Below are positions 11,080 through 56,970 of a stretch of 64,000 nucleotides of DNA, in pieces. Under the pieces are notes generated by a model that did not search any database, was not told where the DNA came from, and saw only the letters and a program-made list of their open reading frames with translations. Origin of the DNA: an uncultured Pseudomonadota bacterium. GTDB lineage: Bacteria; Oederibacteriota; Muellerivitia; Muellerivitales; Muellerivitaceae. Numbering within the stretch: the first letter of the stretch is position 1; each line of letters opens with the position of its first letter. The position numbers were made by a program, and so were the translations under genes. The stretch spans positions 608,001-672,000 of the forward strand of contig CAVYRH010000004.1 in the NCBI GenBank assembly GCA_963770835.1, written 5' to 3'.

Positions 11080-11095
11080 TATGAGGAAGCTCATA
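11080..11095. promoter_or_regulatory. TATGA-N6-TCATA Crp/Fnr-type site upstream of hemerythrin-GGDEF
   Basis: TATGAggaagcTCATA; minus-strand -10 TATCAT at 11058-11053. Confidence 0.75.
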
Positions 11096-12281
11096 ATTTG
11101 TTTTTACCCTTTCGGGGGATGAAAAATAAAAGAATCGAGGCCATCCCCGCCAAAGCGGCTCCCACCCCGAAGGCCGAGGGGTAGCCCCAGGCTTGTCCCA
11201 CGAAGCCGAATAGGAGGCTCGCTGGAAGGGCAAAGAGTCCTAACACCAGGTTGTAATAGCCAAAAGCCGTTCCCCGCAAAGCCTTGGGCGCCAGGTCCGC
11301 CACGAAGGCTTTTTCCGAGGGCTCGCACAAGCCGTAAAAAACACCGTAAGCGAGGAAGAGGGCGATGAGGCCTTCCTTTTGGCTGACGAGGGCGAAGCCC
11401 AGGTAAATCAAGGCGTAATAGATCCAACCGGAAATGATCAGCGGTTTGCGGCCCAGGCGGTCCGAAAGGGATCCGCTGTAGGGTGAGGAGACCATCCGGA
11501 CCCCCCCATGAAGCCCCCAAAGCAGGAAGACCCAGCCGCCGGGCACACCCGCCTGCGAGAGGCGCAGGATCAGGAAGGCGTCGGAGGAATTGCCTAGGGT
11601 GAAAAGAAGCAGGGCCGCCAGGAGGAACTTGAAATTTCCCCCTAGGCTCTTCCAGTCCTGGAAAAGGGTGAGGCGCTTGGCTTGGGGCGGGGTGGCCTTG
11701 GGCTTTTCCTCCACCTTCCAGACGAACGACCAGGCCAGTACCCCCGGCACGAGGGAAAGCAGGATGATGTTGCGGTAAGAAAGGCCGAGGAAGCCAAGGG
11801 CGGCGGCCAAGAAGGGTCCCAGCAACTGGCCCGCGTCGTCCATGGCGCTGTGGAAACCGTAGGCGGCGCCCCGGTTGGCGGGGGAGGTGACGTCCGCGAT
11901 CAAGGCGTCCTGGGGGGAGGACCGAACCCCCTTTCCCAAGCGGTCCGCGAAACGGAGGAAAAGGACCCAAGGCCAGGTTTGGGCCAAGCCCACGAGGGGG
12001 CGAAGCAGGGTCGACATGGCGAAACCGAGGATGAGGAAAGGCTTCTTTTTCCGGACCCGGTCGGCCCCGATGCCGGAGAAAACCTTGATGAGGGAAGATG
12101 CCGATTCGGCGACTCCTTCCACCCAGCCGACGGCCACCGGGCCCGCGCCCAAAACCTGGGCCAGGAAAAGGGGAACGACGGGGTAGATCATTTCCTTGGC
12201 CAGGTCGTTGAAAAGGCTGACCAAGCCCAGTTGAAAGACCGTTTTAGGGATGGATTTGAGGAACTTCGCCAGCCTAGACAT
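11091..12281 (-). CDS. MFS transporter
   Basis: About 12 TM helices, RFADRLGKGVR and GSLSDRLGRK motifs. Confidence 0.92.
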   Translation of the reverse strand: MSRLAKFLKSIPKTVFQLGLVSLFNDLAKEMIYPVVPLFLAQVLGAGPVAVGWVEGVAESASSLIKVFSGIGADRVRKKKPFLILGFAMSTLLRPLVGLAQTWPWVLFLRFADRLGKGVRSSPQDALIADVTSPANRGAAYGFHSAMDDAGQLLGPFLAAALGFLGLSYRNIILLSLVPGVLAWSFVWKVEEKPKATPPQAKRLTLFQDWKSLGGNFKFLLAALLLFTLGNSSDAFLILRLSQAGVPGGWVFLLWGLHGGVRMVSSPYSGSLSDRLGRKPLIISGWIYYALIYLGFALVSQKEGLIALFLAYGVFYGLCEPSEKAFVADLAPKALRGTAFGYYNLVLGLFALPASLLFGFVGQAWGYPSAFGVGAALAGMASILLFFIPRKGKNKL

Positions 12282-12987
12282 GGCTGATCAGGCGGGCGAT
12301 TCCAAAGGCGGCGCCGGCCGCGGAGATGCCGACAGCCGTCACTGTCAAGGCGCCCTTGATGGGGTCCTGGCCCGTGAAACGGGCCTTGTAGTAGCCGAAA
12401 ACCAGGAGGCATGCGACGGTGATGAGAAAGGAATAAAAAAGGCCGGCCAGGGGTTCCTTGCAGAAGAAGTAAGCCGAGAGGGGCACCAATCCGCCGATGG
12501 CGTAGGAAATGCCGATCCTCAGGGCGCTGAAGAGCGCCTGGCGGGGGTCCGGCTTTTCCAGCCCCAGCTCGAAGCGCATCATGAAATCCACCCACATCTT
12601 GTGGTCTTTTTCCAGGTCCCGGGCGACCCCCTCCCGGACCTCGGCGGAGATGCCGTAATTCTCCAGGATGTTCTTGATCTCGTCCATCTCCTCTTGGGGG
12701 ATCTTTTTTACCTCCAACTCCTCGCGGCGCTGTTCGCCCTCGTAGTGTTCGATTTCCGTCCGGCCTGCCAGGTAGCCGCCCAGGCCCATGGAGATGGTGC
12801 CGGCGATAATCTCGGCCAGGCCCGCCACGATGATGATGGAACTGTTGCTCACCGCCCCGCTCAGGCCCGCGGCCAGGGCAAAGGGCACGGTAAGCCCGTC
12901 GGAGGTTCCCACCACGAAGTCCCGGAGCGCGAGGAGGGAAATGGAATGCCTCTCCCGGTGGTGGTGATGCGGTATATGGACGGGCAT
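12274..12987 (-). CDS. VIT1/CCC1-family iron/manganese transporter
   Basis: RDFVVGTSDGLTVPFAL, GLAEIIAGTISMGLGGYLA. Confidence 0.93.
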   Translation of the reverse strand: MPVHIPHHHHRERHSISLLALRDFVVGTSDGLTVPFALAAGLSGAVSNSSIIIVAGLAEIIAGTISMGLGGYLAGRTEIEHYEGEQRREELEVKKIPQEEMDEIKNILENYGISAEVREGVARDLEKDHKMWVDFMMRFELGLEKPDPRQALFSALRIGISYAIGGLVPLSAYFFCKEPLAGLFYSFLITVACLLVFGYYKARFTGQDPIKGALTVTAVGISAAGAAFGIARLISHV

Positions 12988-13206
12988 GGTTTTTCCCTAT
13001 GGTGGAATGGCACAAAAAAACCGGTTTCCCGGGGGCTTTTGATCTTATTCCAGGGGCTTTAACCGCACAAGGCCTTCGTTATTGCTTATTTCGAGGTGGA
13101 ACCAGTTAAACCAGAACCCATTTCAAATTGTTTTCAGCTTTGATTTTTGGGGGAAGAGAGGCCTAGGGTAAAGGCGTAGGTCCCGAGACTTTGAAGGAGG
13201 AATTAC

Positions 13207-13383
13207 ATGCCTAGGACAAAAGAAAAGGAATCCGTGAAGCCGCATCAGGAAGAAATGCCGCATGAAAGCCTGGAGACGGCCGCCTATTACCACTGGCTGG
13301 AGAGGGGCTGCCCCATAGGCGACGACCTGACCGATTGGGTCGAGGTGGAAAAGAAATACACCGCCACCGCCCGGCACAACTAG
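13207..13383 (+). CDS. DUF2934-family small protein (58 aa, not in ORF track)
   Basis: GAAGGAGG RBS; MPRTKEK...AAYYHWLERGCPIGDDLTDWVEVEK. Confidence 0.85.
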   Translation: MPRTKEKESVKPHQEEMPHESLETAAYYHWLERGCPIGDDLTDWVEVEKKYTATARHN

Positions 13384-13527
13384 CAGGTTGATAGAAGAGA
13401 GTTCTTTTTGGAATTTGTAGCGAAGCTTTCCCCTTTTGAAAAAGCGAGGAAGCTGGGGTCATTTCTGCTCCTTGGGCTTTGAGAGAAATGTCATGGTCAA
13501 AACGTAAGTCAAGAAGATAGGTTTGGT

Positions 13528-14205
13528 TTAGGGTTGGCTAGTTGGCTGGTTGGGGGTTTTAGCGCCGCTGGCTAGCAGGTTCTCCGAGCTTTTTTTTTGA
13601 TCGAGGGCCAATTGTTCCGCCGTCATTTCCTTCTGGACGGACTGCAACAGGTCCCGCACGCTGCCCTGGATGGAATCCCCCACCAAGAAGGCCGGGGCGC
13701 CGAAATGCTCTTCGGCGTCCAGGGTATAAATGATCTCCAGGCTGCCGTCGTCGGCGGGGTTGAGGGTCCAGGTGCCCTGGTAAAAGTCGAAATCCTTGTG
13801 GCTGGTATCCTCAAAGACAATGGATTTTTGGGGCTGTTGGTGGACGCTCAAAAGAAGGTGGATCCTTTGGGTGAAGAAAAGGAAGCCGCCTTCCCCTTCT
13901 TGTTCCAAAACCAGGTCGTCGTTGGTTTGGCTGAGAACCTTGCTGACCTTCATGCTGTTCACGAAATGGGGGATGCGGCCGTAATCGGTGAGAACCGCCC
14001 AGGCCGTGGAGGGGTCCACTTTCACGAAGAAGGAGCCTTCCACCTTGAAGTGGCCCCACTGGTCGTAAAAGGAAAGGGTGGGAGGGGTCAAGTCGGCGGC
14101 CTTTCCCGCGCCGCAGGAGAGCGCGGCGCAGGCGGCCACCATCGTAGCCCTGAGAAGGAGCATACGAAGATTTCGGGTTGGTGCTTGGGTCAACATGGTT
14201 TTCAT
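13528..14205 (-). CDS. Exported SRPBCC/cyclase-dehydrase-fold protein
   Basis: Signal-like N-terminus; AWAVLTDY..IPHFV, FYQGTW motifs. Confidence 0.75.
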   Translation of the reverse strand: MKTMLTQAPTRNLRMLLLRATMVAACAALSCGAGKAADLTPPTLSFYDQWGHFKVEGSFFVKVDPSTAWAVLTDYGRIPHFVNSMKVSKVLSQTNDDLVLEQEGEGGFLFFTQRIHLLLSVHQQPQKSIVFEDTSHKDFDFYQGTWTLNPADDGSLEIIYTLDAEEHFGAPAFLVGDSIQGSVRDLLQSVQKEMTAEQLALDQKKSSENLLASGAKTPNQPTSQP

Positions 14206-16721: not shown

Positions 16722-16737
16722 AGCAACCTGAATGCCA
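16722..16737 (-). promoter_or_regulatory. Sigma-54 promoter for yceI-porin
   Basis: Minus strand TGGCATTCAGGTTGCT has exact -24/-12 spacing. Confidence 0.75.
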
Positions 16738-16825: not shown

Positions 16826-16911
16826 GCACCGCTTACTGAAGCCCCGGTCCGGCAAAAGTAAAATCCACGTTGCTTCCAGGGCGCATCATGCCCCACAGGG
16901 GCGGTTGATTC

Positions 16912-16927
16912 TATGAGCGAGGTCATA
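16912..16927. promoter_or_regulatory. TATGA-N6-TCATA site
   Basis: TATGAgcgaggTCATA. Confidence 0.7.
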
Positions 16928-17056
16928 GATAAATATTTTTTTGGATGGGTTCTCACGGGGTCGGCCAGGGACTCATGATGCATTCCCGAAAGAGTTGAAA
17001 AATAAGGAGAAAATAAAAACGGCGCAGTAATACACCGCCACCTGGGCGGTTGATTT

Positions 17057-17072
17057 TATGACATGCATCATA
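17057..17072. promoter_or_regulatory. TATGA-N6-TCATA site
   Basis: TATGAcatgcaTCATA. Confidence 0.7.
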
Positions 17073-17272
17073 AAGTTGTGTCCTGGGGAATGTTCCATTG
17101 GTTCAGTTGGGGACGTCCGGAACATCTACGGCAAGGGCAAACAAAAATAAAAAGGAAGGCCGCAAAGCAACCGAGGCTTGGTTGCGTTTTGGGGAATTGT
17201 GGAATCCGATTTTAGGTTCCAGCGACCCGTGAATCCTGGACAGGAAGGGGAAAAAAGCGAAAGTGATGGGTC

Positions 17273-17288
17273 TATGATTTTCGTCATA
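17273..17288. promoter_or_regulatory. TATGA-N6-TCATA site upstream of the membrane kinase-like gene
   Basis: TATGAttttcgTCATA. Confidence 0.7.
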
Positions 17289-17372: not shown

Positions 17373-18731
17373 TTGGCGCACTTCCAGCATGAAATAAGGT
17401 CCGAGAGACTTAGCTGGTTTATCTACCTGCGTTGGGGGGCGGTGGCGGGCGCCTTGGCCATTTTATTGGCGGGGCCCTGGCTGGTGCCAATGGCCATCCA
17501 ATACGGGAAGATCGGCGCCTGCGTTTTGATCCTTGGCGTTTTGAACGCAATCTACCTTATGTATTGGGAAAGGTTGAAGTCCTCACAGCCATCCCCGATG
17601 GATTTCGCGAAGAAAGTTCATTTCTTCCTGCATTTCCAAATGGCCACCGACCTGGCCCTTTTAACCGCCATGCTTTATTTCAGCGGCGGCGCCAAGAACC
17701 CACTGATCCTTTTTTATCTTTTTCACCTGGCCATCAGCGCGATTCTTTTCAACCAGGCCGAAAGCCTTTTCTACGCGGCCCTGGCTTTGCTGCTTCCCTG
17801 GGTTCTTTATTTACTCGAATGGGGAGGTTTCTTGACCGCGGATCCCTGGCCGGGGATATCGGGGGTTTCCGGTGACCACGAGCAATCCATTCTTTGGGCT
17901 TACTCGGTGGCGGTGGCGGGCCTATGGTTCTTCCTTTCCCGCCTGGGGTTGGACGTCGAGACGAAGGAACAAGCGCTACGGGAGACCGGGGAAAAACTTC
18001 AAACCGCCAACGAGGCGCTGAAACAGCTGGACGTCTACAAGAACCAGTTCCTCAAACAAGTAGTCTTCCAATTGAAGAAGCCCGCCATCGAAATGGATTT
18101 CGACCTCTCCGCGGTCGAGAGCGCCATCGACGCGAAAAATGAAAAGGCCTTGGAGGCCGTCCAAACGGCCAAGAAGCGGATTTGGATCCTCCTGGAACTT
18201 ATCGAGGATTTGGTCTGGCTTTCCCGGACGCAGGCCGGCGAAACGCCGCTTAAGAAGTCGTGGGTGAACGTTTATGAAACCCTTCTCAAACGGATCCAAA
18301 CCGTGGAAGAGAAGGCCCACCAGAAAGGAATCACCTTTCAACTCCATGGGGAGCCCCAGACGCGCCTCCTGGCGGACCCGGAGTCGTTCGAAAGGGTCGC
18401 GGACAACCTTTTCTCCAACGCGGTCAAATACACCCCCGTCGGCAAGAGCAGCGTTTTAGTGGCCTTTCACCCTGAGGGGAACTGGCTCGTTTTCACCGTG
18501 GAGGACGAGGGCATCGGCATCCCGCCCAAACAGCAGAAAAAACTGTTCCAGGAATTTTTCCGGGCCACCAACGCCAGGACCATGGAAAAGTTCGGGACTG
18601 GCCTGGGCCTTTCCATCGTCAAGCAGGTCATGGACCTCCATGGGGGCCGGGTGTCGCTGTCCAGCGAAACCAAAAAGGGAACAAAGATCGAGACTTGGTG
18701 GCCTTTTACGGCAACCGGTGCTCCTACCTGA
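17373..18731 (+). CDS. Membrane sensor histidine-kinase-like protein lacking the phospho-acceptor His
   Basis: About 6 TM helices; intact N, D, F and G2 boxes; H-box reads FLKQVVFQLKKP. Confidence 0.85.
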   Translation: MAHFQHEIRSERLSWFIYLRWGAVAGALAILLAGPWLVPMAIQYGKIGACVLILGVLNAIYLMYWERLKSSQPSPMDFAKKVHFFLHFQMATDLALLTAMLYFSGGAKNPLILFYLFHLAISAILFNQAESLFYAALALLLPWVLYLLEWGGFLTADPWPGISGVSGDHEQSILWAYSVAVAGLWFFLSRLGLDVETKEQALRETGEKLQTANEALKQLDVYKNQFLKQVVFQLKKPAIEMDFDLSAVESAIDAKNEKALEAVQTAKKRIWILLELIEDLVWLSRTQAGETPLKKSWVNVYETLLKRIQTVEEKAHQKGITFQLHGEPQTRLLADPESFERVADNLFSNAVKYTPVGKSSVLVAFHPEGNWLVFTVEDEGIGIPPKQQKKLFQEFFRATNARTMEKFGTGLGLSIVKQVMDLHGGRVSLSSETKKGTKIETWWPFTATGAPT

Positions 18732-18923
18732 CAGTTAAGCTTCCCTCCGCTTTCCGCACTTCTTTCGGCATTTATTAATGAACCAAAATGGGATTAACGA
18801 GCAATTTAACGTGTCCGCCTTAACCCTGCTTGGCAAAATTACCCTTTCCAAGCCATAATGGCGCACCTGCCCGGGGAAAACGCCGTTGGCCCCGCTGGTG
18901 AATGACCAACCTAAGGGGAAGAT

Positions 18924-20123
18924 TTGGCCCGCAAGAAAACCACGCGAAAAGTTCAAAAAAAACCGGCTCCTAAGGCCAAAGTTTTGGGCGGGCTCAAGCG
19001 CCTCCTTGACGCGCAAGTCCAATTGAACCGCTTCCGGGGCATCCTGGAGGCAGCTCCCGACTCCATGATCATCGTGGGCAAGGATGGAAAGATAGTCCTC
19101 ATCAACGCCCAAACCGAAATCCTTTTCGGGTACAAACGGGAAGAGTTACTAGGACAACCGATCGAGGTACTGATCCCCGAAAGGTACCGGGCCAACCATC
19201 CCAGCCACCGGGGCGGGTTCTTCGCCTCCCCCAAGACCCGTCCCATGGGGGCGGGCCTCGACCTTTACGCCCTGCGCAAGGACGGAAGCGAGTTTCCGGC
19301 GGAGATTTCCCTCAGCCCCACCGAAACGCCGGAAGGGCATTTCGTCACGGCGGCCATCCGCGACGTGACCGAGCGCAAACGGCAATTGGAAGAGGAAAAC
19401 CGCCGGATGCAGGAGGCTACACGCCTCAAAAGCGAGTTCCTGGCCAACATGTCCCACGAGCTGCGCACCCCCTTGAACGCCATCATCGGGTTCTCCGAGC
19501 TCATGGTGAACGAGAAAGTCGGCCCCCTCTCGGCCGAGCACAAGGAATACCTGGGCGACATCCTGACCTCCGCCCGGCACCTGCTGCAGCTCATCAACGA
19601 CGTGCTGGACCTGACCAAGGTCGAGGCGGGGAAAATGGAATTCCGTCCCGAAATCCTGGACCTTCCCAAGGTGACCACCGAAGTAAAGGACATCCTGAGG
19701 GGCCTGGCGGCGGCCAAACGCATCACCGTGGAAGTCAAAATCGACCCCACCCTCCCGAGGGTCCTGCTGGACGGCGGCAAGTACAAGCAAGTGCTTTACA
19801 ATTTCCTGTCCAACGCCATCAAGTTCACGCCCGAAAACGGCCGGGTTTCCATCAACGCCGTTCCGGAAGAAAACGGGATGTTCCGCCTCTCAGTGAAAGA
19901 CAATGGGATCGGCATCAAGGCCGAGGACAGGCACAAGCTTTTCATCGAATTCACCCAGTTGGACCAGGGTACGGCCAAGAAATACGCAGGCACTGGACTG
20001 GGGTTGGCCCTGACCAAGCGCATCGTAGAAGCCCAGGGTGGACGGGTGGAGGTCCAAAGCCAGGCGGGAGTGGGTAGTACCTTCTCGGCGGTACTACCGT
20101 TGGAAATGGAATCGAAAAAATAA
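18924..20123 (+). CDS. Cytoplasmic PAS-domain histidine kinase
   Basis: PAS ([15 protein letters not shown]), [25 protein letters not shown]. Confidence 0.95.
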
Positions 20124-20140
20124 TCGTTTGAGGTATTTTG

Positions 20141-20527
20141 ATGGCGGGTGAACCGATCCTCATCGTCGACGACAATGTAACCAATCTTAAATTGACCCGG
20201 ATTGTTCTCATTAAGGAAGGTTACGCGATCCAGACGGCGGCTAATGCGGAGGAAGCTATCCGTAAAATGATGGAAGGATTTAAGCCCCGGCTGATCCTGA
20301 TGGACATTCAGCTTCCTGGAATGGATGGCCTCGCGCTGACGCGCCAACTCAAATCGGCCCCTGAAACCAAAGATATTGTCGTAGTGGCCCTGACGGCCTA
20401 TGCCATGAAAGCAGACGAGGAAAGGGCCCGCGCCGCTGGCTGCGATGGCTACATCGCCAAGCCCATCGACACCCAAACCTTTCCTGCGTTGATCGCGGAT
20501 TATCTGAAGAGAGAAAAGGCTTCATGA
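20141..20527 (+). CDS. Single-domain response regulator (DivK-like)
   Basis: ILIVDD, LMDIQLPGMDG, LTAYAM, KP. Confidence 0.93.
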   Translation: MAGEPILIVDDNVTNLKLTRIVLIKEGYAIQTAANAEEAIRKMMEGFKPRLILMDIQLPGMDGLALTRQLKSAPETKDIVVVALTAYAMKADEERARAAGCDGYIAKPIDTQTFPALIADYLKREKAS

Positions 20528-21918
20528 AAAAAATCCTGGTCATCGACGACGACCCCATCGAACGGCGGCTTCTCCAGGCGGTCCTGGGAAAGGCGGGCGG
20601 TTTCGAGGTGATTACGGCGGAAAACGGCCAATTGGGCCTGGAAAGGGCCGTGGATTCGGTCGGCGCCGTCATCCTGGACCTCCAACTGCCCGACATGAGC
20701 GGCATGGACGTCCTGAAAAAGCTCAAGGCGGCCCGGCCCCAGCTTCCGGTCATCATGCTCACCGGCGTCACCGACCTCCAGACGGCGGTGGAGGCCACCC
20801 AGGCCGGCGCCTACAACTACCTCACCAAGCCCTTCGAGAACGACCAGCTGCTCATCACCCTCAAGCGCGCCATGGAGCAAGACGAACTTCTGGCGGAAAT
20901 GGCCCAGCTCCGCCGGCAGGCGGGGAAGGGCCCGGCCTTGACCCGCATCATGGGCCAAGGGGACGCGATCCAAGAGGTGATCCAGCAGATCCAAAAAGTG
21001 GCCGGCTCCACGCTCACGGTCCTCATCCAGGGGGAGACGGGCACGGGCAAGGAACTTGTGGCGCGGGCCCTGCACGAGGAAAGCTCCCGCCGCCAAAAAC
21101 CCTTCGTGGCGGTGGACTGCGGCGCCCTGGCGGAAAACCTGCTGGAATCCGAGCTTTTCGGCCACGAGAAGGGGGCCTTCACGGGGGCTGACCGCAAAAA
21201 GGAAGGCCAACTGGTGCTGGCACAAGGCGGCACGCTCTTCCTGGACGAGGTTGGCAATTTGCCCATGGGCCTCCAGGCCAAGCTCCTGAGGGTCTTGCAG
21301 GAACGCCAGGTGAAGCCCGTGGGTGCCGAGAAATTAATCCCCATCGACGTGCGCTTCATCGCCGCCACCAACGCCCCCCTCGAGGAGGAGGCCAGGGCCG
21401 GCAAGTTCCGCCAGGACCTTTATTACCGCTTGGCCGAATTTACGGTCAATCTCCCCCCCTTGCGAAAGAGGCCAGAGGACCTTTCTTTGCTGGCCAACCG
21501 GTTCCGTGAAGAGGCATCCACTGAATTTCGCAAGCCGGTTGTCACCTTTTCGGGGGAGGCTGTTATGCTGCTTTCGGCCCACGCTTGGCCGGGCAACGTC
21601 CGCGAATTGCGGAATGTGGTGCGCCAAGCCGTTTTATTAACGCCCGATTCCATGGTCAATGAGGAACAGATTCGGGAGTTGTTGGGGAAGAAAGCCACCC
21701 ATGAATCCATCGGGCCGGTCGAAGTGCCCATCCCAGCCGGGCTTTCCCTGAAACAAATCGCCGAGGCCGCCGTGGAAGAGGCGGAAAAACAAGCCATCCG
21801 CAACACTCTCAAAGCCACGGGTGGCAACAAGTCCCAAGCCGCCAAAATCCTCAAGACGGACTACAAGACCCTCCACGTCAAAGTCAAGAAGTACGGCCTC
21901 CAAGCCAAAGAAGACTAA
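20524..21918 (+). CDS. NtrC-family sigma-54-dependent response regulator
   Basis: REC domain, GETGTGKE, GAFTGA, LFLDEV, WPGNVREL, C-terminal HTH. Confidence 0.96.
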   Translation: MKKILVIDDDPIERRLLQAVLGKAGGFEVITAENGQLGLERAVDSVGAVILDLQLPDMSGMDVLKKLKAARPQLPVIMLTGVTDLQTAVEATQAGAYNYLTKPFENDQLLITLKRAMEQDELLAEMAQLRRQAGKGPALTRIMGQGDAIQEVIQQIQKVAGSTLTVLIQGETGTGKELVARALHEESSRRQKPFVAVDCGALAENLLESELFGHEKGAFTGADRKKEGQLVLAQGGTLFLDEVGNLPMGLQAKLLRVLQERQVKPVGAEKLIPIDVRFIAATNAPLEEEARAGKFRQDLYYRLAEFTVNLPPLRKRPEDLSLLANRFREEASTEFRKPVVTFSGEAVMLLSAHAWPGNVRELRNVVRQAVLLTPDSMVNEEQIRELLGKKATHESIGPVEVPIPAGLSLKQIAEAAVEEAEKQAIRNTLKATGGNKSQAAKILKTDYKTLHVKVKKYGLQAKED

Positions 21919-22119: not shown

Positions 22120-22135
22120 TGGCATCTCCCTTGCG
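22120..22135 (+). promoter_or_regulatory. Sigma-54 promoter for the RR-Crp/Fnr operon
   Basis: TGGCATCTCCCTTGCG has exact -24/-12 spacing, about 40 bp before ATG 22177. Confidence 0.75.
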
Positions 22136-45229: not shown

Positions 45230-45289
45230 CCCTCCCCTTATAAATAGGATCATCCTAAAGGTGAAATCAGATTCGCAAGGAGGTCCGCC

Positions 45290-45796: not shown

Positions 45797-45816
45797 GCTT
45801 TCCCTGGGAGGCGGTC

Positions 45817-46446
45817 ATGGGGAAACTTATGGGGCTTAAAATGCGTACAGGTTTTTTGGTTGTCGTAGTTATCTTGCTCGTCGGAATTACCGCCGATTCC
45901 TCCTGGAAAGAATCGTCCGGTACGGGCCTTCAAGCGGCGGAAAATCCCCTCGTTATCCAAGGCCGCCGGCTTTACACCCAATTTCATTGCGAGTATTGCC
46001 ATCGGCTGAAAGGACGCGGCGGCACCGTGGGCCCGGCCCTGGACAATGTGGGCTTCCGAAGGACGACCGAATGGCTGTCGGACCATTTCCAGAACCCCCA
46101 AAAACTTTCGAAGGGTTCCCAAATGGCCCGCATTCCACTGAAGGACGACCAGGTGAAAGCCTTGACGGCCTTCATGAACAGCCTGGGCGGGCGGACCTTT
46201 ACGCCCGAAGCCCCCACACTCTTCGTGCAATATTGCAGTTCCTGCCACCGGATGAACGACATCGGCGTTCCCACCACGGTCGACCTTTCCAACGAAGGGC
46301 AATTCCGTGACATTGATTTCATACAGAACCGCATCAAGGACCCCCTGCAAATGAAACCTACCACCACCATGCCGAGTTTCGGCCGGGTGCTCACCGACGC
46401 CCAGATCAAGGACCTGGCGGTTTATATCTTCCGTGGGGGGCGTTGA
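45817..46446 (+). CDS. Diheme cytochrome c
   Basis: N-terminal hydrophobic anchor, CEYCH and CSSCH; paralogous to the tail of the cytochrome b fusion. Confidence 0.88.
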   Translation: MGKLMGLKMRTGFLVVVVILLVGITADSSWKESSGTGLQAAENPLVIQGRRLYTQFHCEYCHRLKGRGGTVGPALDNVGFRRTTEWLSDHFQNPQKLSKGSQMARIPLKDDQVKALTAFMNSLGGRTFTPEAPTLFVQYCSSCHRMNDIGVPTTVDLSNEGQFRDIDFIQNRIKDPLQMKPTTTMPSFGRVLTDAQIKDLAVYIFRGGR

Positions 46447-46565
46447 TTCTCAATCTTCCCTCAAAGATAAAATGACCACTTGGTTTCGGATGGGGTCTTG
46501 GGTAAAGATGATTTAAAGCCGCTTCATCCAGTAAAAAAATCTAAAAAGCATCCAGGGAGTCTTTT

Positions 46566-47597
46566 ATGCATTACCGCCGCTTCGGCCGCACCGGCCTTTT
46601 CGTTTCCGAGCTTTGTTTCGGCGCCATGACCTTCGGCGGGAGGGGCTTCTGGACCGCTATCGGAAAATTGGACGCTTCCGAGGCCCAGGCCCTCATCGGC
46701 GCCTCGCTGGACGCAGGGATCAACCTTATCGACACCGCCGACGTTTATTCCGAGGGCGAATCCGAAAGGCTGGTGGGGGAAGCCCTGGCGGCCCTGAACC
46801 GGCCGCGCCACGAGATTTTGGTGGCCACCAAATGCCGGGGAAAGGTCGGGAACACTCCCAACGACATGGGCCTCTCCCGCGGCCACATCCTGCGTTCCAT
46901 CGATGGGAGCCTGAAGCGGCTGAAACTCGACTTCGTGGACCTCTACCAAATTCACGGCTTCGATCCCGAAACGCCGCTGGAGGAAACCATGCGGGCTCTG
47001 GACGACGTGGTGAAATCGGGCAAGGCGCGCTATGTGGGGTTCTGCAATCTTTCCGCCTGGCAGGCCATGAAGGCCCTGGCCTTCGCGGAGGCCAACGGCC
47101 TCAACCGCTTCGTCAGCGCGCAGATTTATTACTCCATCGGGGGCCGGGACATCGAGCGCGAACTGGCGCCCCTATGCCAGGACCAGGGGCTGGCCATCCT
47201 GCCCTGGAGCCCGCTGGCCGGGGGACTTTTCTCCGGCAAGTACGACCTCGAAAATCCGGGGCCCGAGGGCGCGCGCCGCACGACCTTCGACTTCCCGCCC
47301 GTGGACAAGGTCCGGGCCAAGGAAATCCTGAAGGTTTTGAGGGAAGTCTCCCAGACGGTTGGCGCGCCCGTTTCACGGGTGGCCTTGGCCTGGATGCTCA
47401 CCAAGCCCTTCGTCACCAGCATTATCCTGGGGGCCAAGACCCTGGAACAACTGAAGGACAACCTGCTCGCCACCGACCTGGCGCTTTCGCCGGAACAGAC
47501 CGCGAAGCTGGACGCCGTCAGCGCCATGCCCGCCGAATACCCGGGTTGGATGCTCTCCCGCCAGTCCGTGGAACGAGTGCCCAAAACGGCGAGATAA
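46566..47597 (+). CDS. Aldo/keto reductase
   Basis: IDTADVY, DLYQIHG, PWSPLAGG. Confidence 0.95.
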   Translation: MHYRRFGRTGLFVSELCFGAMTFGGRGFWTAIGKLDASEAQALIGASLDAGINLIDTADVYSEGESERLVGEALAALNRPRHEILVATKCRGKVGNTPNDMGLSRGHILRSIDGSLKRLKLDFVDLYQIHGFDPETPLEETMRALDDVVKSGKARYVGFCNLSAWQAMKALAFAEANGLNRFVSAQIYYSIGGRDIERELAPLCQDQGLAILPWSPLAGGLFSGKYDLENPGPEGARRTTFDFPPVDKVRAKEILKVLREVSQTVGAPVSRVALAWMLTKPFVTSIILGAKTLEQLKDNLLATDLALSPEQTAKLDAVSAMPAEYPGWMLSRQSVERVPKTAR

Positions 47598-47665
47598 GAA
47601 TTTATGGAAATTTTATGAAATCAACTGAACGAACCAGAACTTTACTTTTGGTTGAAAGCTTCTTT

Positions 47666-48199
47666 TTAAACTTCGACCGGGCCCGGGTCGCGGCTCGTCT
47701 CAGCGACTAGGTCTTTCGGCAGGGAATGGGCACAAAGGTCCGTGGCGCCGCAAAGCTCGTTCACGAAGAGGTGCTTGGAAACCTGCGCCGTTAGTTCGCG
47801 AAGGAGCATTTTGCTACGGGCCGCCGCGCCGGGGACCCGCCACAAAACCTGTTGGACCAGTTCACGCGCGAAGTCGCTGGCGCCGCGGCACAGCACCTGG
47901 TAGCGCTCGACCGGAACCAAACCCTCGCCTTCCTGGAACCTTTCGGGATTGTGATTGCGCTCCACCGGCTCGCAGGCCTCGTCGCACTGGGCTTGGGCCC
48001 CGCAGAACTCAAAAGCCTTCAAGCGGTTCAAGGCCCCCTGCCGCAAAGCCTTGGAAAGGATAAGGATCCGAACGCCCTTGCTGGGATAAACGACGGGCCA
48101 GTCGTGGTCGGGGATTTGGGGTTCCAATTCCAACGCCAGCTTCCGGATCCAGTCTTTCAGGTTCAGCCCATTCGATAAACGAAGTTGGTATACGGCCAT
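47666..48199 (-). CDS. Cys-containing hypothetical protein
   Basis: AGGAGG RBS; CGAQAQCDEAC, C, CGATDLC. Confidence 0.6.
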   Translation of the reverse strand: MAVYQLRLSNGLNLKDWIRKLALELEPQIPDHDWPVVYPSKGVRILILSKALRQGALNRLKAFEFCGAQAQCDEACEPVERNHNPERFQEGEGLVPVERYQVLCRGASDFARELVQQVLWRVPGAAARSKMLLRELTAQVSKHLFVNELCGATDLCAHSLPKDLVAETSRDPGPVEV

Positions 48200-48514
48200 G
48201 ATGGTCCTCCTAACGCTTCCCGCCGTGGGTTTCAAACGGCGGTTTGGGGCCTTGGGTGTTTCCGACCCCCCGCAACCCATTCAACCCCCGGATGGAGCGG
48301 GCGTCTATGACCGACGTCATCAAGGGGGAGGCCTACCAACCCGGAAAAAGGGCCGGGCCGACCGATGGGACCATGTCCGGTTGGTTTAGGGCTTTTCCTA
48401 AAAAAAAGGGCCAAAATCTTCATTCGCCCTATTGCGTTGCGCAGGTAAGTAGAATTAAGTTTTTCATAAGGATTTTAAAGGGATGACCTTTGGAAGTCCG
48501 GAAAGGGGAAAGCG

Positions 48515-48982
48515 CTGATACTTTCCACCAAACTCCGCCGAAAATTCGAGATATTGCTTGTGGAGGACAATCCGGCCGACGCAAGGCTTGTTTCCCTCGC
48601 CTTGAAAGGGTTCATGATCGACCACGAACTGAGAGTCGTGTCCGATGGGATGGCCGCCATGGATTTCCTCACGAAAAGGAACGCCTACTCGGACGCCCCC
48701 CGGCCGGATGTTGTCTTCCTGGACTGGATGCTGCCCCACAAAAGCGGTGACGAGGTTTTGAGGGAGATGCGGTTTGACCCGAACCTGAAGGACATCCCGG
48801 TGGTGGTGGTGAGCGGGTGCGAATCGACCGAAATGATCCGGGAGGCTTATAACGCCGGAAGCAATTTGTGCATCGTGAAGCCCATCACCTTAGACCGCTT
48901 CCCCTTTATCCTTCGGTTCATGCAGGAAATTTTACAGGAGGAGGGGGATTCCCCGCCGCCTCCCTTCACCTCGATCAATTAA
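48515..48982 (+). CDS. Single-domain response regulator (Rcp1-like); start uncertain
   Basis: EILLVEDNPAD, RPDVVFLD, KP; no in-frame ATG, CTG 48515 follows AAGGGG. Confidence 0.85.
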   Translation: MILSTKLRRKFEILLVEDNPADARLVSLALKGFMIDHELRVVSDGMAAMDFLTKRNAYSDAPRPDVVFLDWMLPHKSGDEVLREMRFDPNLKDIPVVVVSGCESTEMIREAYNAGSNLCIVKPITLDRFPFILRFMQEILQEEGDSPPPPFTSIN

Positions 48983-49047
48983 CCTTTCCGCCTTCGCGGC
49001 CCATTCCGGTTGTCAATTCAAAAAAGAAGACTGCTTCTGGAGATGAC

Positions 49048-50670
49048 TTACTGCCTTTCGCTTGTTTCCTGCAGGAGCGACAGGCGGTGCTGGGACAAAA
49101 CGGAGCGGAACTTCCGGAGGCTTTCGGCCAGGGATTTTTCCGTATTGATCCCCACGGCCTCCCAAGTGGCGGGCGGTTCCTGCCAGCGCTCCGCCATTTG
49201 CTGGTACACGGTGTAGTCGGCGTCCGAGGCGTAACGCTCGGTTTTTTGGAGGCGCTCCCGCACAATCCCCTCGTCCGCCTGGCAAGTGAAGAATAAAAAA
49301 GGCAGGCGTAGTTTTTGTGCCAAGCGGTAAAAGGGCTCCCGCCGGGCCTGTTCCCAAAGGCTGGCGTCGATCAAAACCCTTTGTCCCTTCAGGAGTCCTT
49401 CCTCCGCTTTTTCCAGCAAATAGGAATAAGTCTTGTCGGTCCATTCGGGGGTGTAAAGGCCCTGGTTCCAGCCACTGGAGGGCTGGGAGGAAGGCAGGAA
49501 ACCGGCCAGCTCCTTGCGCACCACATCCGAGGATAAAACCAAAAAGTCCTCGTTCTTTTCCAACGCCCGGGAAAGACTGCTCTTGCCCGTACCAGGAAGG
49601 CCCGACAAAAGCACCAGGCAGGGCCGGCCCTGGGGCAGGGCCAGCTTCGAAAGCGCCATGCGGAAGTGGAGGCGGGCCTTCTCCCGGGCTTTCGCCCTTT
49701 CCTCCGGGGACATGTCGGCTTCTTGGGCCTGCAGGCCGCGCACCAGGCCGCGGACCAGGTGGCGGTAGGCGGTGTAAAAAGAAAGCAAGTCGGCGTCCTC
49801 ATCCCCGCTTTGGGAAACCCACGAATAAGCCAGGAGGTTGGCCTCGTTGGAGAGTCCTTGGGCCTCCAGGTCCATCACCAGGAAGGCGACGTCGGACATG
49901 GGGTCGCCGCAGCGGTAACGGGGGTCGAATTCCACGCAATCGATAAGGAGGATGTCCTGGGGCGGCGCCGCATTAGGGAAGCAATACACGTGTTCCATCC
50001 TCAAATCGCCGTGGCCCTCCCGGGCCCGCCCTATTCGGCCCTCGATCCAAGGCTGGTGCCGGTTCCACTCGTCCTGGAAACTGGATTCCAGTTTCTCCCA
50101 CAATTCGGGCGCGAGGATCTCCGCCGGGAAGTTCCGGGTCTGGCTGAGGATCTGGCTCCAATCCTCCTCCACGGATTCGGGTTCGGCCCAGCGGGAAACC
50201 TCGGGGCCTTGGGCGGCCTGTCCATAAAACCGGACCAGCTTCTCCACCAGGCGGGACCAGAACCCCTCCGGCAGGCGGCCCGATTCCAGGAGCTTGTTCA
50301 GCCGGTTCTCGTCGGGAAGCCGCCGCATCTTGACGGCGTATTCCACGGGATCGCCTTCCCCCTCGAAGGACAGCACATCCCCTTTGCGGAAGACCGGCAC
50401 CACCCCCAGGTAAACGTCCGGAGCCAGGCGGCGGTTCAACTCGATTTCCCGCTCGCAGAAATTCCTGCGCTTTTCCAAGGTGGAATAGTCCACGAAGAGG
50501 AACCGGACGGGTTTTTTGATCTTGTAGGCAAAGTCGCCAGCCAGGAACACGATGGAGATGTGGGTTTGGACGGTCTTGAGTTCGGCCACCGGGTAGGGAA
50601 AAGCGATGTTTTCGGCGGCCAAGTGGGGGGGAAGCATTCCTGGTGCCGGGTTCTTCAGGATTTGTTCCAA
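49048..50670 (-). CDS. Bifunctional aminoglycoside-phosphotransferase-fold / AAA_33 kinase (Rv2004c-like)
   Basis: QTHIS.VFL, HGDLR, IDCVEF, GLPGTGKS, SDVVRK, SDAD. Confidence 0.9.
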   Translation of the reverse strand: MEQILKNPAPGMLPPHLAAENIAFPYPVAELKTVQTHISIVFLAGDFAYKIKKPVRFLFVDYSTLEKRRNFCEREIELNRRLAPDVYLGVVPVFRKGDVLSFEGEGDPVEYAVKMRRLPDENRLNKLLESGRLPEGFWSRLVEKLVRFYGQAAQGPEVSRWAEPESVEEDWSQILSQTRNFPAEILAPELWEKLESSFQDEWNRHQPWIEGRIGRAREGHGDLRMEHVYCFPNAAPPQDILLIDCVEFDPRYRCGDPMSDVAFLVMDLEAQGLSNEANLLAYSWVSQSGDEDADLLSFYTAYRHLVRGLVRGLQAQEADMSPEERAKAREKARLHFRMALSKLALPQGRPCLVLLSGLPGTGKSSLSRALEKNEDFLVLSSDVVRKELAGFLPSSQPSSGWNQGLYTPEWTDKTYSYLLEKAEEGLLKGQRVLIDASLWEQARREPFYRLAQKLRLPFLFFTCQADEGIVRERLQKTERYASDADYTVYQQMAERWQEPPATWEAVGINTEKSLAESLRKFRSVLSQHRLSLLQETSERQ

Positions 50671-50729
50671 GGTTCCGCCTCTTTGGGACGGCTTTTCACC
50701 GTTATTTTAAGCGGCAAGGTTGAGAAACC

Positions 50730-50745
50730 TATGACTCCAGTCATA
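50730..50745. promoter_or_regulatory. TATGA-N6-TCATA site centred between divergent promoters
   Basis: TATGActccagTCATA; -10 TATAGT (+, 50768-73) and TAAAAT (-, 50709-04). Confidence 0.8.
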
Positions 50746-50808
50746 GTCTGGAAGCTGCTGAGGTTCCTATAGTTAAAGAAAAGGCGAAGCGCCTTCCCGG
50801 AGTTCCAA

Positions 50809-51912
50809 ATGAAAAACTCCACTACCATCTTGACCGTTTCGGGCATCCAAATCAAAGTCCATTTCACCTTTCTCCTCCTCCTTCTATATGTGGCCGTCGA
50901 AGGCTGGATGGAGAATGGGGCGTCAGGCGCGGTTTTTGGGTTGGTCTTCACCCTCGCCCTTTTCGCCTGCGTGGTACTGCACGAGTTGGGACACAGCTTT
51001 ACCGCCCAGGGTTTCGGCATCCCGGTTGGCCAGATCCTGCTTTTGCCCATCGGCGGCGTGTCATCCCTTTCCAAAAAACCGAAAAATCCCTTGCAGGAAA
51101 TCCTGATCGCCCTAGCCGGGCCCCTGGTCAGCGTGGCTTTGGCAGTTCTCTTTTACCAGGCGTCCGGCTCGCCAGCCCTGACGGCTAATAGTTTCGCAGG
51201 GGTAGGGGAGAAGATGGATTTCACCCTGCCCACGATCCTGTTCTGGCTCTTCCGGACCAACCTTATCCTGGCGGTCTTCAACCTGATCCCGGCCTTTCCC
51301 ATGGACGGCGGGCGGGTGTTCCGGGCGGTGCTGCGCCTTTTCTTGAGGGAACCCCGGGCCACCGCTTTGGCGGCTTCGGTGGGCAAGGTTTTCGCCGTCA
51401 TCTTTGGCTTGGTGGGGCTCTTGATCGGCAACATGATCCTGGCCCTGGTGGCCTTTTTCCTCTACTTCGCGGGGGCGGGCGAGGTGGCGGGTGAGGCCAC
51501 GGAGGAAATCCTCAGCCACATCCGGGCCGGTGCCGTCTGCGCCCATTTTGGGGCGAGCCTGGAATCCACCGATACCCTGCGCCGGGTGATGGAACTGGTC
51601 TTGGGAAGCGAGCAAAAGAACTTCCCGGTCCTGGAGGGAGATAACTTGGCAGGAGTCTTGGAAAGCCGCGCCTTGAGGGACAGGCATGGGGACCTTCGTC
51701 CGGATACCCCCGTCACGGACCTGATGCGGCGGAATGTCCCGCGGATCCAGGCGGATGAGAACCTGGGACAAGCGTTGGGGGAATTGCGTGAGGCCGGGGC
51801 CCACAGTTGCGCGGTTTTCGAGGGCAGCCGGTTTTTGGGGCTTTTGGACGAGGACCGGATCCGATTGGCCCTGGCCCTTTCGCCGTTTTTGGTAGCCACT
51901 AACCGTAGTTAA
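50809..51912 (+). CDS. Site-2 protease (M50) with CBS domains (Rip3/Rv2625c-like)
   Basis: HELGH, NLIPAFPMDGG, C-terminal CBS pair. Confidence 0.92.
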   Translation: MKNSTTILTVSGIQIKVHFTFLLLLLYVAVEGWMENGASGAVFGLVFTLALFACVVLHELGHSFTAQGFGIPVGQILLLPIGGVSSLSKKPKNPLQEILIALAGPLVSVALAVLFYQASGSPALTANSFAGVGEKMDFTLPTILFWLFRTNLILAVFNLIPAFPMDGGRVFRAVLRLFLREPRATALAASVGKVFAVIFGLVGLLIGNMILALVAFFLYFAGAGEVAGEATEEILSHIRAGAVCAHFGASLESTDTLRRVMELVLGSEQKNFPVLEGDNLAGVLESRALRDRHGDLRPDTPVTDLMRRNVPRIQADENLGQALGELREAGAHSCAVFEGSRFLGLLDEDRIRLALALSPFLVATNRS

Positions 51913-51922
51913 AGGGGGAAGC

Positions 51923-52117
51923 ATGGTTAAGGAAAAGAAAAGATCAATTCCAAAAATCAAGGCGATGACAGGCGGCCAAAAGAAAAACACCATCGAGGAA
52001 GCGGCTTATTTCCGCTGGCTGGCCCGCGACCAGGAGCACGGGAAGGACCTGAACGACTGGCTGGGCGCCGAACAGGAACTGATGGAAAACATCTTTGAGC
52101 GCGACGCGGAGGGTTGA
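51923..52117 (+). CDS. DUF2934-family small protein
   Basis: IEEAAYFRWLAR...DLNDWLGAE. Confidence 0.85.
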   Translation: MVKEKKRSIPKIKAMTGGQKKNTIEEAAYFRWLARDQEHGKDLNDWLGAEQELMENIFERDAEG

Positions 52118-52221
52118 TTTCAAGCCCAGGGGAAGCTAGTCCTGAGCGCCAACCACTTTTTTGTCACGCTTGGCCCGCCCTATCCCGGCATTGACAAACC
52201 TGATGTCGTCCTAATAAAGTT

Positions 52222-52976
52222 ATGAAATTCCCTATGAAAATAACTCGAAACCGGAATTGGATCATTCTACTTGCTTTCCTATGCCTTGAGGGGCAGGCAT
52301 GGGCCGGGAACCCTTTTATGACCGACGACCCGGAGCCCGTGAACCTGGGCCACGGGGAAGTTTTCGTGGCCGGAAGTTATTTCCAAAATTCAGGTGGAAC
52401 CAACGGCACGGGCCAGTTCGAAGTGAATTATGGAGCTTTTCCCGAAACCCAGCTCCATCTCATTATCACCGGTGCTTTCAACGCCCCCAACGGCCAGCCC
52501 GCCTCCTCCGGCGTGGGCGACACGGTGTTGGGTGTTAAGTACCGCTTCTTAAGGGAAAGCCCCGGAGTCCCCCAAATGGGGGTTTATCCCTGGGTCGTAC
52601 TTCCCACCGGCAATGCTTCCCAGGGCCTGGGCACCGGCCAAACGCATGTTTTCCTCCCACTTTGGATCCAAAAAAGCTGGGGGCCCTGGACCACTTACGG
52701 CGGGGGAGGATATTGGATTAATCCTGGGACAGGAAACCAAAACTGGGTTTACTTGGGATGGGAAGCGCAACGGGACCTTTCACCGGTGGTCACCTTGGGG
52801 GGGAACTTTTCTACCAAACCCCGGCCACCGTGGAAGGCCTGGAAACCCTCTCGGGCGATCTCGGCTTGATTGTCAACTTGAATGATCAAAACCATCCCAT
52901 GATCTCGATCGGCCGGGACCTGGTGAACCCTGTCAACACCCTCTTCGGTTACGCCGCTTACTTGTGGACATACTAA
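52222..52976 (+). pseudogene. Outer-membrane beta-barrel/transporter gene frameshifted at a G7 run
   Basis: PFMTDDPEP, GDTVLGVKYR and LPTG motifs in the first frame; barrel continues as ELFYQ...YLWTY in another frame after 52797-52803. Confidence 0.75.
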
Positions 52977-54713: not shown

Positions 54714-54915
54714 GGCAGCACCTCCTTACACCATTCTAAAGCCCTGTCCCCCCAGTGGGGACCATGGGATTGAAATTTCTGAAAAACGAAAGGCGAAATA
54801 GGTGCCCCCCAGCTTTCGTTTTTGTTAGGAAAGGTGAAACCTGAGCCGGGTCATATGCATCCGGAAAAATTGGAAATACATTAAATTAAAGCCAAAGTTC
54901 AAGGAGGAAAGAACC

Positions 54916-55095
54916 ATGGTGAAGACAATCGCCAAGCCAAAAACGGCTAAGGCCAAAGAAGCGGTTTCAAGGGAAGAACTGGAAGTGGCCGCTTATTACC
55001 ACTGGCTGAATAGGGGTTGCCCCAACGACGATCCGCTGACCGATTGGGTTGAAGCGGAGGAAAAGTTAAACAAGGACGGTTCGCCGAGAAAATAA
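54916..55095 (+). CDS. DUF2934-family small protein (59 aa, not in ORF track)
   Basis: AAGGAGG RBS; ...LEVAAYYHWLNRGCPNDDPLTDWVEAEEKL. Confidence 0.85.
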   Translation: MVKTIAKPKTAKAKEAVSREELEVAAYYHWLNRGCPNDDPLTDWVEAEEKLNKDGSPRK

Positions 55096-56691: not shown

Positions 56692-56804
56692 GGTCACACC
56701 TCGCTGGAATTTGTACGAGTCCAACTTACGATGCGGTGCGGGACTCATTTATGACTTAAATCATTAAATTATAATGAGGAAATTCCAGCCGGTTGAAGCG
56801 GCCC

Positions 56805-56822
56805 TATGGCTGTGGCGCCATG
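56805..56822. promoter_or_regulatory. Putative sigma-54 enhancer (UAS) palindrome
   Basis: TATGGCT-gtgg-CGCCATG. Confidence 0.6.
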
Positions 56823-56906
56823 GCTTCACTGCCAGAATTTCCTAAACGCTCCAGGATGACGCGCTAAGACCCTCCCTAAATCCCTTCGATTTCTTCCATC
56901 CATGCC

Positions 56907-56922
56907 GGGCATGCCAATTGCC
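56907..56922 (+). promoter_or_regulatory. Candidate sigma-54 promoter
   Basis: GGGCATGCCAATTGCC has correct GG-N10-GC spacing. Confidence 0.6.
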
Positions 56923-56954
56923 TTAACTCTCAGTGAAGGCGGATCTTTAACTGA

Positions 56955-56970
56955 TATGACCAATGTCATA
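56955..56970. promoter_or_regulatory. TATGA-N6-TCATA site for the erythrin-like pair
   Basis: TATGAccaatgTCATA; -10 TAAAGT at 56991-96. Confidence 0.75.

Follow-up and report, generated by a model that had tools for sequence, protein, structure and literature searches.

Genes and Palindromic Sites in the Window

The DNA analysed here, hereafter the window, is a 64,000-nucleotide stretch (G000:C4:608001–672000) of the genome of a soil bacterium of phylum FCPU426 (4.58 Mb in 26 contigs, 54.5% G+C). It carries multiple copies of the 16-bp palindrome TATGA-N6-TCATA, which an earlier sequence-only reading had taken for the operator of a regulon controlled by a Crp/Fnr-type protein encoded in the same stretch. 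We know of no work on gene regulation in FCPU426, and no cultured member is found among its records. The positions given below are those of the window unless a contig (C) or a homologous locus (L) is named.

The eight perfect and seven imperfect copies listed by that reading were all recovered, six of the latter with one mismatch (24064, 24359, 37444, 38419, 48306 and 56750) and one with two (54840). The eight perfect matches compare with 0.01 expected from 100 dinucleotide shuffles, none of which reached eight, in agreement with the claim that such sites should occur well under once by chance. When up to two mismatches were allowed, 27 matches were found where 7.2 were expected, and chance thus accounts for some of the 12 matches outside that list.

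The gene for the proposed regulator, Crp/Fnr paralog A (22631–23329, plus strand), encodes a 232-amino-acid protein with a cyclic nucleotide monophosphate (cNMP)-like barrel and the recognition helix TTVETSIRTFS. It is preceded on the same strand, directly upstream, by a gene for a receiver-only response regulator (22177–22599), and both lie downstream of a sigma-54-type promoter candidate, TGGCAT-N5-TTGC (22120–22134, plus strand). A signalling operon (17373–21918, plus strand) codes for a six-transmembrane (6TM) PilS-like histidine kinase, a PAS histidine kinase, a receiver protein and an NtrC-type sigma-54 activator. Three perfect sites are found ahead of this operon, all without a TAnnnT hexamer at 20–22 bp: those at 16912–16927 and 17057–17072 lie between the YceI-like and the histidine-kinase gene, which are divergent, and that at 17273–17288 (plus strand) is positioned 92 bp upstream of the 6TM PilS-like kinase gene. 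The first two sites have a duplicated left flank in common (16890–16927 and 17040–17072), a short hairpin followed by GGCGGTTGATT, which suggests that a promoter unit was duplicated locally.

The perfect site at 11080–11095 (minus strand, TATCAT 21 bp downstream) is the likely promoter of a hemerythrin gene, with GGDEF and EAL genes next in line. The first ATG of the longest hemerythrin open reading frame (ORF; 10495–11094, minus strand) is read from the CAT within the TCATA arm of the site, and the likely true start is the second Met, an ATG at 10996 with the ribosome-binding site AAGGAAA, which leaves the site about 91 bp upstream. Since the arms TATGA and TCATA contain ATG and CAT, they can mislead start-codon calls.

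The perfect site at 44951–44966 (minus strand, TAGTAT at 21 bp) forms the predicted promoter of an operon running from 44865 to 40734 (minus strand), with genes for a cytochrome c, a Cyc2-like cytochrome-porin, a Rieske protein and a fusion of cytochrome b with a dihaem cytochrome c. The Cyc2-like protein (472 amino acids) carries a signal peptide and a single CxxCH motif, its C-terminus is porin-like with Phe as the last residue, and it has no match in Pfam or NCBIfam. The operon could be an iron-oxidation or extracellular electron-transfer chain. Site 45214–45229 (perfect, plus strand), with no TAnnnT at 20–22 bp, stands 68 bp upstream of a gene for a cNMP-domain-only protein (45290–45796), which is followed by genes for a dihaem cytochrome c and an aldo-keto reductase; the orthologous pairing of site and gene is found in L012. 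The perfect site at 50730–50745 serves two divergent promoters, with TATAGT at 22 bp facing an M50 peptidase-CBS gene (50809–51912, followed by a DUF2934 gene) and TAAAAT at 20 bp facing the gene for a 540-amino-acid AAA_33 protein (49048–50670). The perfect site at 56955–56970 (plus strand, TAAAGT at 20 bp) lies 74 bp upstream of two tandem rubrerythrin genes (57036–58012).

Among the imperfect sites, that at 56750–56765 (one mismatch, minus strand, TAAGTT at 21 bp) is located 66 bp upstream of a radical SAM/SPASM gene (TIGR04053 family, AhbD-like), and the two-mismatch site at 54840–54855 (plus strand, TACATT at 21 bp) faces a DUF2934 gene (54916–55095), not PPK2. One-mismatch sites are also found upstream of an outer-membrane beta-barrel gene (site 24359–24374, plus strand, TAGAGT at 21 bp; gene 24576–25169) and 110 bp upstream of a 77-amino-acid signal-peptide ORF (site 37444–37459, minus strand, TAAATT at 21 bp; ORF 37108–37341). 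The remaining three, each with one mismatch, are less certain. Site 24064–24079 (plus strand, TAAAAT at 20 bp) is doubtful, as it overlaps the 3′ end of an ORF of the thioredoxin type and the next plus-strand gene is about 500 bp away. Sites 38419–38434, between two divergent genes without a known family, and 48306–48321, between a gene without known function (47666–48199, minus strand) and a receiver gene (48560–48982, plus strand), have no −10 hexamer at 20–22 bp and are regarded as uncertain.

Most of the sites thus lie upstream of genes, as the sequence-only reading had said, with the exception of the doubtful site 24064 and with the provision that site 11080 overlaps the first ATG of its ORF. 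All eight hexamers which it had named were found, as well as TAAATT at 37444, and nine of the 15 sites have a TAnnnT at 20–22 bp in at least one orientation. Its list of targets (hemerythrin, cytochromes, Cyc2-like protein, radical SAM protein, rubrerythrins and DUF2934 proteins) held up. As to the DosR-like genes also listed there, no GerE-type response regulator adjoins any site of the window.

Distribution of the Motif in the Genome

Twenty-three perfect sites are present in the whole genome, and the same arms are found once with a five-base spacer and twice with a seven-base spacer. With about 2.5 perfect sites estimated from base composition, TATGA-N6-TCATA is approximately ten-fold over-represented in the genome. 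The putative regulon is not confined to the window, as 15 of the 23 perfect sites are found outside it; 12 of the 23 are clustered within about 75 kb (C4:619–694 kb). Non-coding DNA, which by the crude gene calls used here makes up 17% of the genome, holds 20 of the 23 perfect sites, 43 of the 87 one-mismatch sites and 267 of the 931 two-mismatch sites, with site 11080 being one of the three perfect sites which fall in called coding DNA. In the genome as a whole, 20 of the 23 perfect sites were found at most 320 bp upstream of a start codon, many of them at 56–115 bp. The palindrome marks about 20–60 promoters in this bacterium.

When the outer bases of xxTGA-N6-TCAxx were left free, the class (TA,TA) was the top intergenic one (20 intergenic words against 3 coding), and the class (TG,TG) gave six intergenic words and no coding ones. 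The FNR word TTGAT-N4-ATCAA is not enriched, only two of its eight matches in the genome being intergenic. The claim that the motif is an operator of the Crp/Fnr type, and one that differs from those of CRP and FNR, is supported. Neither the flanks of the sites nor the six-base spacer are conserved, except for a preferred C/G adjoining each arm within the spacer. A repeat element was considered and ruled out on the grounds that the flanks are not conserved, which argues for an operator.

Promoter Geometry

The spacing between the palindrome and the −10-like hexamer was analysed for the 23 perfect and 43 intergenic one-mismatch sites, an orientation being taken as gene-facing if a start codon lies at most 320 bp away. 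In the gene-facing orientations, a TAnnnT hexamer follows the 16-mer at 20 bp in five cases, at 21 bp in 16 and at 22 bp in four (25/67), against a background of about 0.7 at each of the other offsets; the corresponding numbers in the other orientations are one, four and one (6/65). The same geometry was observed for 13 of 31 sites in related loci. With a gap of 21 bp, the centre of the site is located 29.5 bp before the −10 hexamer and therefore near −41.5. CRP and FNR are placed in this way at class II promoters, and the peak at 21 bp agrees with the class II placement put forward earlier. Class II placement and activation from these sites are predicted accordingly from the spacing. The palindrome was also considered as the −35 element of an alternative sigma factor; this was ruled out, a gap of 21 bp being too long for such an element and the word being a palindrome.

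Crp/Fnr Proteins of the Genome

The genome encodes four full Crp/Fnr proteins, designated A to D. Paralog B (C4:692643–693302) is encoded about 20.6 kb beyond the window, is 65% identical to A and has the helix TTVETCIRTFS, so that 10 of the 11 residues of the recognition helix, TTVET(S/C)IRTFS, are identical in the two proteins. Its own promoter contains three sites, two of which (C4:692507–692537) overlap by one base and have their centres 15 bp apart. A conserved in-frame ATG is found 13 codons upstream of the called start of the B gene, suggesting that B, too, has 232 amino acids. Paralog C (C3:388223–388891) has the helix R-E-V-V-S-R, which is of the CRP type (R-E-x-x-x-R), and paralog D (C2:17347–18003) is aberrant. 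The N-terminal cysteine cluster typical of FNR is absent from all four proteins.

A second Crp-type motif, TGTGAA-N4-TTCACA, has six matches in the genome, all of them intergenic and outside the window (C3:347911, C4:174554, C4:174637, C4:758324, C7:185503 and C11:10727). It fits paralog C.

Domain searches of protein A gave matches to PF00027 (3.4e-17), PF13545 (8.6e-14) and PF00325 (1.2e-5), that is, a cNMP-type barrel and a Crp-type helix-turn-helix (HTH). The AlphaFold2 model has the Crp fold with the barrel strands and a long dimer helix (residues 132–153) at a predicted local distance difference test score of 81, with lower confidence in the loop bearing the cysteines. The best structural matches of the model in a Foldseek search were the CRP of Mycobacterium tuberculosis (MtbCRP) and GlxR, with template modelling (TM) scores of 0.83–0.87. 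None of the named NCBIfam equivalogs searched (FixK, CRP, NtcA, FnrL, PtrA, FtrB, Fnr and LdrP) accounts for A or B, whose best score was 58.5 bits against cut-offs of 211–300, and only generic Crp/Fnr clusters were matched in the ESM Atlas.

In the alignment with MtbCRP, V-E-T-S-I-R of protein A corresponds to R-E-T-V-N-K. Protein A has thus retained the Glu and a basic residue at the last position but has lost the first Arg, just as the sequence-only reading had described. The first Arg of the CRP helix reads the first G of TGTGA, and we infer that its loss goes with the replacement of G by A at the second base of that word. Among 120 homologs (56–100% identity), V194, E195 and R199 of the helix are invariant, while the position that distinguishes A from B is occupied by Ser in 58 and by Cys in 61.

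Conservation of Motif and Regulator in Related Genomes

With a cut-off of E ≤ 1e-40 to protein A, members of the subfamily were detected in 26 of the 30 genomes of the family to which the window belongs (f1), in the single genome of a sister family (f2), and in none of the 67 genomes from 21 other families of the phylum. Perfect sites were counted per genome and compared with a reversed-pattern control. The ratio of sites to control matches was 341:14 over the 28 genomes that have the regulator, with a median of 11 sites per genome, as compared with 219:139 over the 67 from other families. The only near-complete f1 genome that lacks the regulator (G019, 97% complete) has no sites. Either paralog alone goes with sites, as seen in genomes with a single match: one A-like match each in G001 and G002, which have six and three sites against no control matches, and one B-like match each in G006, G023 and G024.

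Twelve loci of about 8–20 kb around homologs were compared. The ten around the closer homologs (58–70% identical) hold one to five sites at no more than one mismatch, at least one of them perfect in 9 of the 10, and no perfect site is found in the two around the most divergent homologs (51–53%). A perfect site precedes the B-type gene by 50–190 bp in L007, L008, L009, L011 (two sites) and L012, and further B-type genes with a perfect site ahead are those at L006:1092 and L010:5281. Eight B promoters were aligned, and in six of them the conserved block is formed by the site and a TAAT/TACC hexamer at 21 bp, the site being located further upstream in L007 and L008. The site ahead of the 6TM PilS-like kinase gene keeps its position (73–82 bp) in L009, L012 and L013. 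Targets conserved across genera are the divergent YceI/6TM-kinase pair, the cNMP-domain-only protein, an AurF-like protein and acetyl-CoA enzymes.

Many regulators are encoded in this genomic island, and the motif might in principle be read by paralog C or D, or by a factor outside the Crp family (NtrC-type, GerE, MarR or TetR). This is highly improbable: the phyletic pattern of the sites follows the A/B subfamily, C has an R-E-x-x-x-R helix and is fitted by a separate motif, and TGA-N6-TCA as the core of a 16-bp palindrome placed at −41.5 is the signature of Crp/Fnr proteins. Taken together, the data show TATGA-N6-TCATA to be a real, conserved promoter element, which is likely the operator of a previously undescribed Crp/Fnr subfamily, predicted to act as a class II activator from near −41.5. 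The readers would be A and B, with their near-identical recognition helices. For FCPU426, such a reading provides a defined operator word together with two candidate regulators and a list of targets for an oxygen/oxidant response.

A number of observations weigh against this assignment. The genomes compared are kin and belong to one clade (f1 + f2), so the co-occurrence amounts to about one gain and one loss (G019) rather than 28 independent cases, and three f1 genomes without a match to the regulator have five, five and two sites (84%, 63% and 82% complete). Among the 118 short cluster representatives that are nearest by profile, many have the TVETxIR helix but only seven the cysteine pattern described below; the helix alone therefore has no power to tie the motif to the cysteine-bearing proteins. 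For the M50-CBS gene, a search of the 30 f1 genomes at E ≤ 1e-40 gave no ortholog and hence no promoter footprint. Relatives of the rubrerythrins (42–46% identity) are found in three of five genomes, with a perfect site about 1.35–1.47 kb upstream in two of the three and adjacent in none. The gene calls (3889 genes, 83% coding) come from a crude ORF-scoring caller made for this analysis. RNA runs carrying 44300–52300 of the window were sought, and the 12 carriers among the matches listed were all DNA, mostly soil metagenomes. Finally, the spacing is not universal: six of the 15 sites of the window (16912, 17057, 17273, 38419, 45214 and 48306) have no TAnnnT at 20–22 bp, three of which (16912, 17057 and 17273) stand before the regulator A operon, and the B-gene site in L007 and L008 is further from any −10-like hexamer. 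Class II activation therefore cannot apply throughout, and repression may occur at some of the sites.

In a rival reading, the sites would be mainly repressor operators or roadblocks, and the regulon would be switched on by derepression. Besides the six sites without class II spacing, this would agree with L009 and L012, in which the site is positioned downstream of a sigma-54-type promoter and inside the likely YceI leader, and with the two overlapping sites, 15 bp apart, before B. The −10-like hexamers nonetheless peak sharply at exactly 21 bp past the site, and the site occupies the place of the −35 element, while a repressor site would be expected over the −10 element or the start. We therefore consider repression as the main mode quite improbable, and retain class II activation as the predicted one.

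A Putative Two-Tier Circuit

The sigma-54-type word TGGCA[CT]-N5-TTGC is found about 490–570 bp before the A-type gene in L006:5697, L010:9491, L014:1042 and L015:5236 and thus, including the window, in five genomes. Its position is the same with respect to the neighbouring genes, directly after the gene for the NtrC-type activator and before the genes for the receiver and the A-type Crp/Fnr protein. As the pattern is not enriched in the window (four matches against 4.2 expected), the argument for a sigma-54 promoter rests on its conserved position. Because a promoter of this type lies downstream of the NtrC-type activator gene in five genomes, A looks like the second tier of a circuit. In such a circuit, B would control its own gene through the sites in its promoter (predicted autoregulation), the sites at 16912–17273 would switch on the kinase/NtrC operon, and the NtrC-type activator together with sigma-54 would fire the promoter before A. 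A and B probably form a two-tier cascade.

Further sigma-54-type words are present on the minus strand at 16723–16737, about 40 bp before the YceI-like gene, and at 9327–9341, about 30 bp before the EAL gene. In L009 (6852) and L012 (5416), such words lie upstream of the TATGA site. This arrangement suggests tandem promoters before YceI.

The sequence-only reading had named the protein encoded at 22631 as the reader of the motif. The helix and the co-occurrence of the subfamily with the sites speak for it, but paralog B, encoded outside the window, has the same type of helix and three sites in its own promoter, so that the claim stands only in part. It could even be supposed that B alone reads the motif as a master regulator and that A is a target with another job: it might, for example, prefer other sites, pair with B in heterodimers or act as an antagonist. 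The B-type genes do keep a site in their own promoter in at least seven loci, A lies behind a conserved sigma-54-type promoter and not behind a TATGA site, and the two helices differ at one position (S against C). On the other hand, the helices are identical at all the other positions, Ser and Cys alternate freely at this one among the 120 homologs, and sites are present in G001 and G002, which have only an A-like match. An exclusive role of B is thus rather unlikely, and both paralogs are retained as the putative readers.

Regulon Content and the Cysteine Pocket

The targets in the window comprise the hemerythrin/GGDEF/EAL genes, the cytochrome c/Cyc2-like/Rieske/cytochrome b-c operon, the cNMP-only/dihaem cytochrome c/aldo-keto reductase genes, the M50-CBS peptidase, the AAA_33 protein, DUF2934 proteins, the radical SAM/SPASM protein of TIGR04053, the two rubrerythrins, the outer-membrane barrel and the small secreted protein. 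Outside the window, sites are associated with genes for two hemerythrin-domain proteins (one of the RIC type, involved in iron-centre repair), an NMO-like protein, a B12 radical SAM protein, an AurF-like di-iron protein, a fatty-acid desaturase, a thioredoxin-reductase-like protein, an FMN reductase, HypC, an acetyl-CoA synthetase/GNAT protein, isocitrate dehydrogenase and acyl-CoA dehydrogenases. Since di-iron proteins and proteins that handle oxygen abound among these targets, a response to oxygen, oxidants or nitric oxide (NO) is its natural reading. The regulon would thus serve an oxygen, reactive-oxygen or NO response, switched on at either low or high oxidant, and the Cyc2-like/Rieske/cytochrome b chain among its targets hints at iron-linked electron transfer.

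Protein A has six cysteines (C81, C85, C96, C97, C98 and C106), the first being residue 81. C85, C96, C97 and C106 are invariant in the 120 homologs, while C98 is kept in 82 and C81 in 62 of them. In the alignment with MtbCRP, cysteines (C96–C98 and C106) fill the phosphate-binding cassette, in which the Glu is replaced by T95 and the Arg-Thr pair by Y104-P105. In CRP, this Glu and the Arg-Thr pair hold cAMP. The signal is therefore predicted to be sensed in this pocket by a cofactor bound to the cysteines, with an iron–sulfur (Fe-S) cluster as the first guess, by a metal or by thiol chemistry, and not by a cyclic nucleotide.

Combining these elements, we propose tentatively, and as a possibility that may well turn out otherwise, that the Crp/Fnr scaffold acquired a second, independent redox sensor here, a cofactor (most simply Fe-S) held by four cysteines in the former cAMP pocket, and that the protein, with its new operator word and two-paralog cascade, acts as the oxygen/NO master switch of an uncultured soil phylum without canonical FNR. 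Binding of a cofactor by the four cysteines is pure inference, which counts against this proposal. The candidate sensing site in the nucleotide pocket would be new, and it is testable with purified protein and an E. coli reporter.

Comparison with Known Systems

FNR of Escherichia coli and FixK-type proteins resemble the A-type proteins in the Crp fold, the TGA-N6-TCA core of the operator, a Val at the place of the first Arg of CRP with the Glu and the last Arg kept, a class II placement (predicted for the A-type proteins) and a respiratory or oxygen-related regulon. The helix of FNR is E-T-I-S-R, and its [4Fe-4S] cluster is ligated by three N-terminal cysteines and a central one. In contrast, the A-type protein has no cysteine before residue 81 and has four invariant ones in the nucleotide pocket instead; its helix reads E-T-S/C-I-R, and the base before TGA in the operator is A, not T as in FNR. 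CRP, MtbCRP and GlxR have in common with A the dimer helix, the HTH, a 16-bp palindromic operator and the overall structure (TM 0.83–0.87), but differ in the positions that contact cAMP (Glu and Arg-Thr/Ser there, T95 and Y104-P105 in A), in the first recognition Arg, which A has lost, and in the operator word, TGTGA as opposed to TATGA. For the Crp/Fnr field, the motif would add a third discriminating base at a key operator position (G in CRP, T in FNR and A here).

The closest functional parallel in print appears to be the lxa locus of Burkholderia cenocepacia. According to the accessible text of the report (PMC3721108), the lxa motif is a 4-bp inverted repeat with a 6-bp spacer that occurs at 17 intergenic sites in a 50-gene locus activated by low oxygen, and at a few sites elsewhere; its regulator is thought to be Crp/Fnr-like and was not identified there. 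As far as this description goes, the two systems are alike in an inverted repeat sharing TGA-N6-TCA and in many clustered copies, and differ in phylum. The term “lxa motif” was found in the literature only in that paper. For HcpR, a replacement at helix position Arg180 is accompanied by a change from G to T in the palindrome, and the regulon is one of redox and nitrosative stress (Rodionov et al. 2004, PMC545781). The comparative logic, from helix to base, and the redox regulon are thus alike, but in the accessible part of that paper the HcpR sites are TTGTGA-N6-TCACAA or ATTTGACC-NN-GGTCAAAT, not TATGA, and a four-cysteine pocket is not described; moreover, no hcp gene is found among the targets in the present genome.

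Literature searches with the exact strings ATGA-N6-TCAT, ATGAN6TCAT, ATGANNNNNNTCAT and “ATGA N6 TCAT” gave no match, and nothing relevant was found among the best 25 of 921 matches to a broader search with TATGA, TCATA, Fnr and Crp. Neither such a motif nor a cysteine pocket is described in the accessible parts of Matsui 2013 (PMC3590769) and of the RedB paper (PMC9603854), the latter stating that many Crp/Fnr subgroups are unstudied. The papers naming FCPU426, among the matches listed, are community surveys. What is new is thus the operator word and the candidate sensing pocket, while the type of regulon, Crp/Fnr, is already known; Crp/Fnr proteins being known as very diverse, a specialist may find the result useful rather than startling.

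Five genomes from other families, which lack the cysteine-bearing subfamily (G039, G026, G076, G091 and G092), have three to eight perfect sites against 0–1 control matches, several of them of the form TATGAC-N4-GTCATA. A more distant regulator with a TVETxIR helix may read the TATGA-N6-TCATA word in these genomes.

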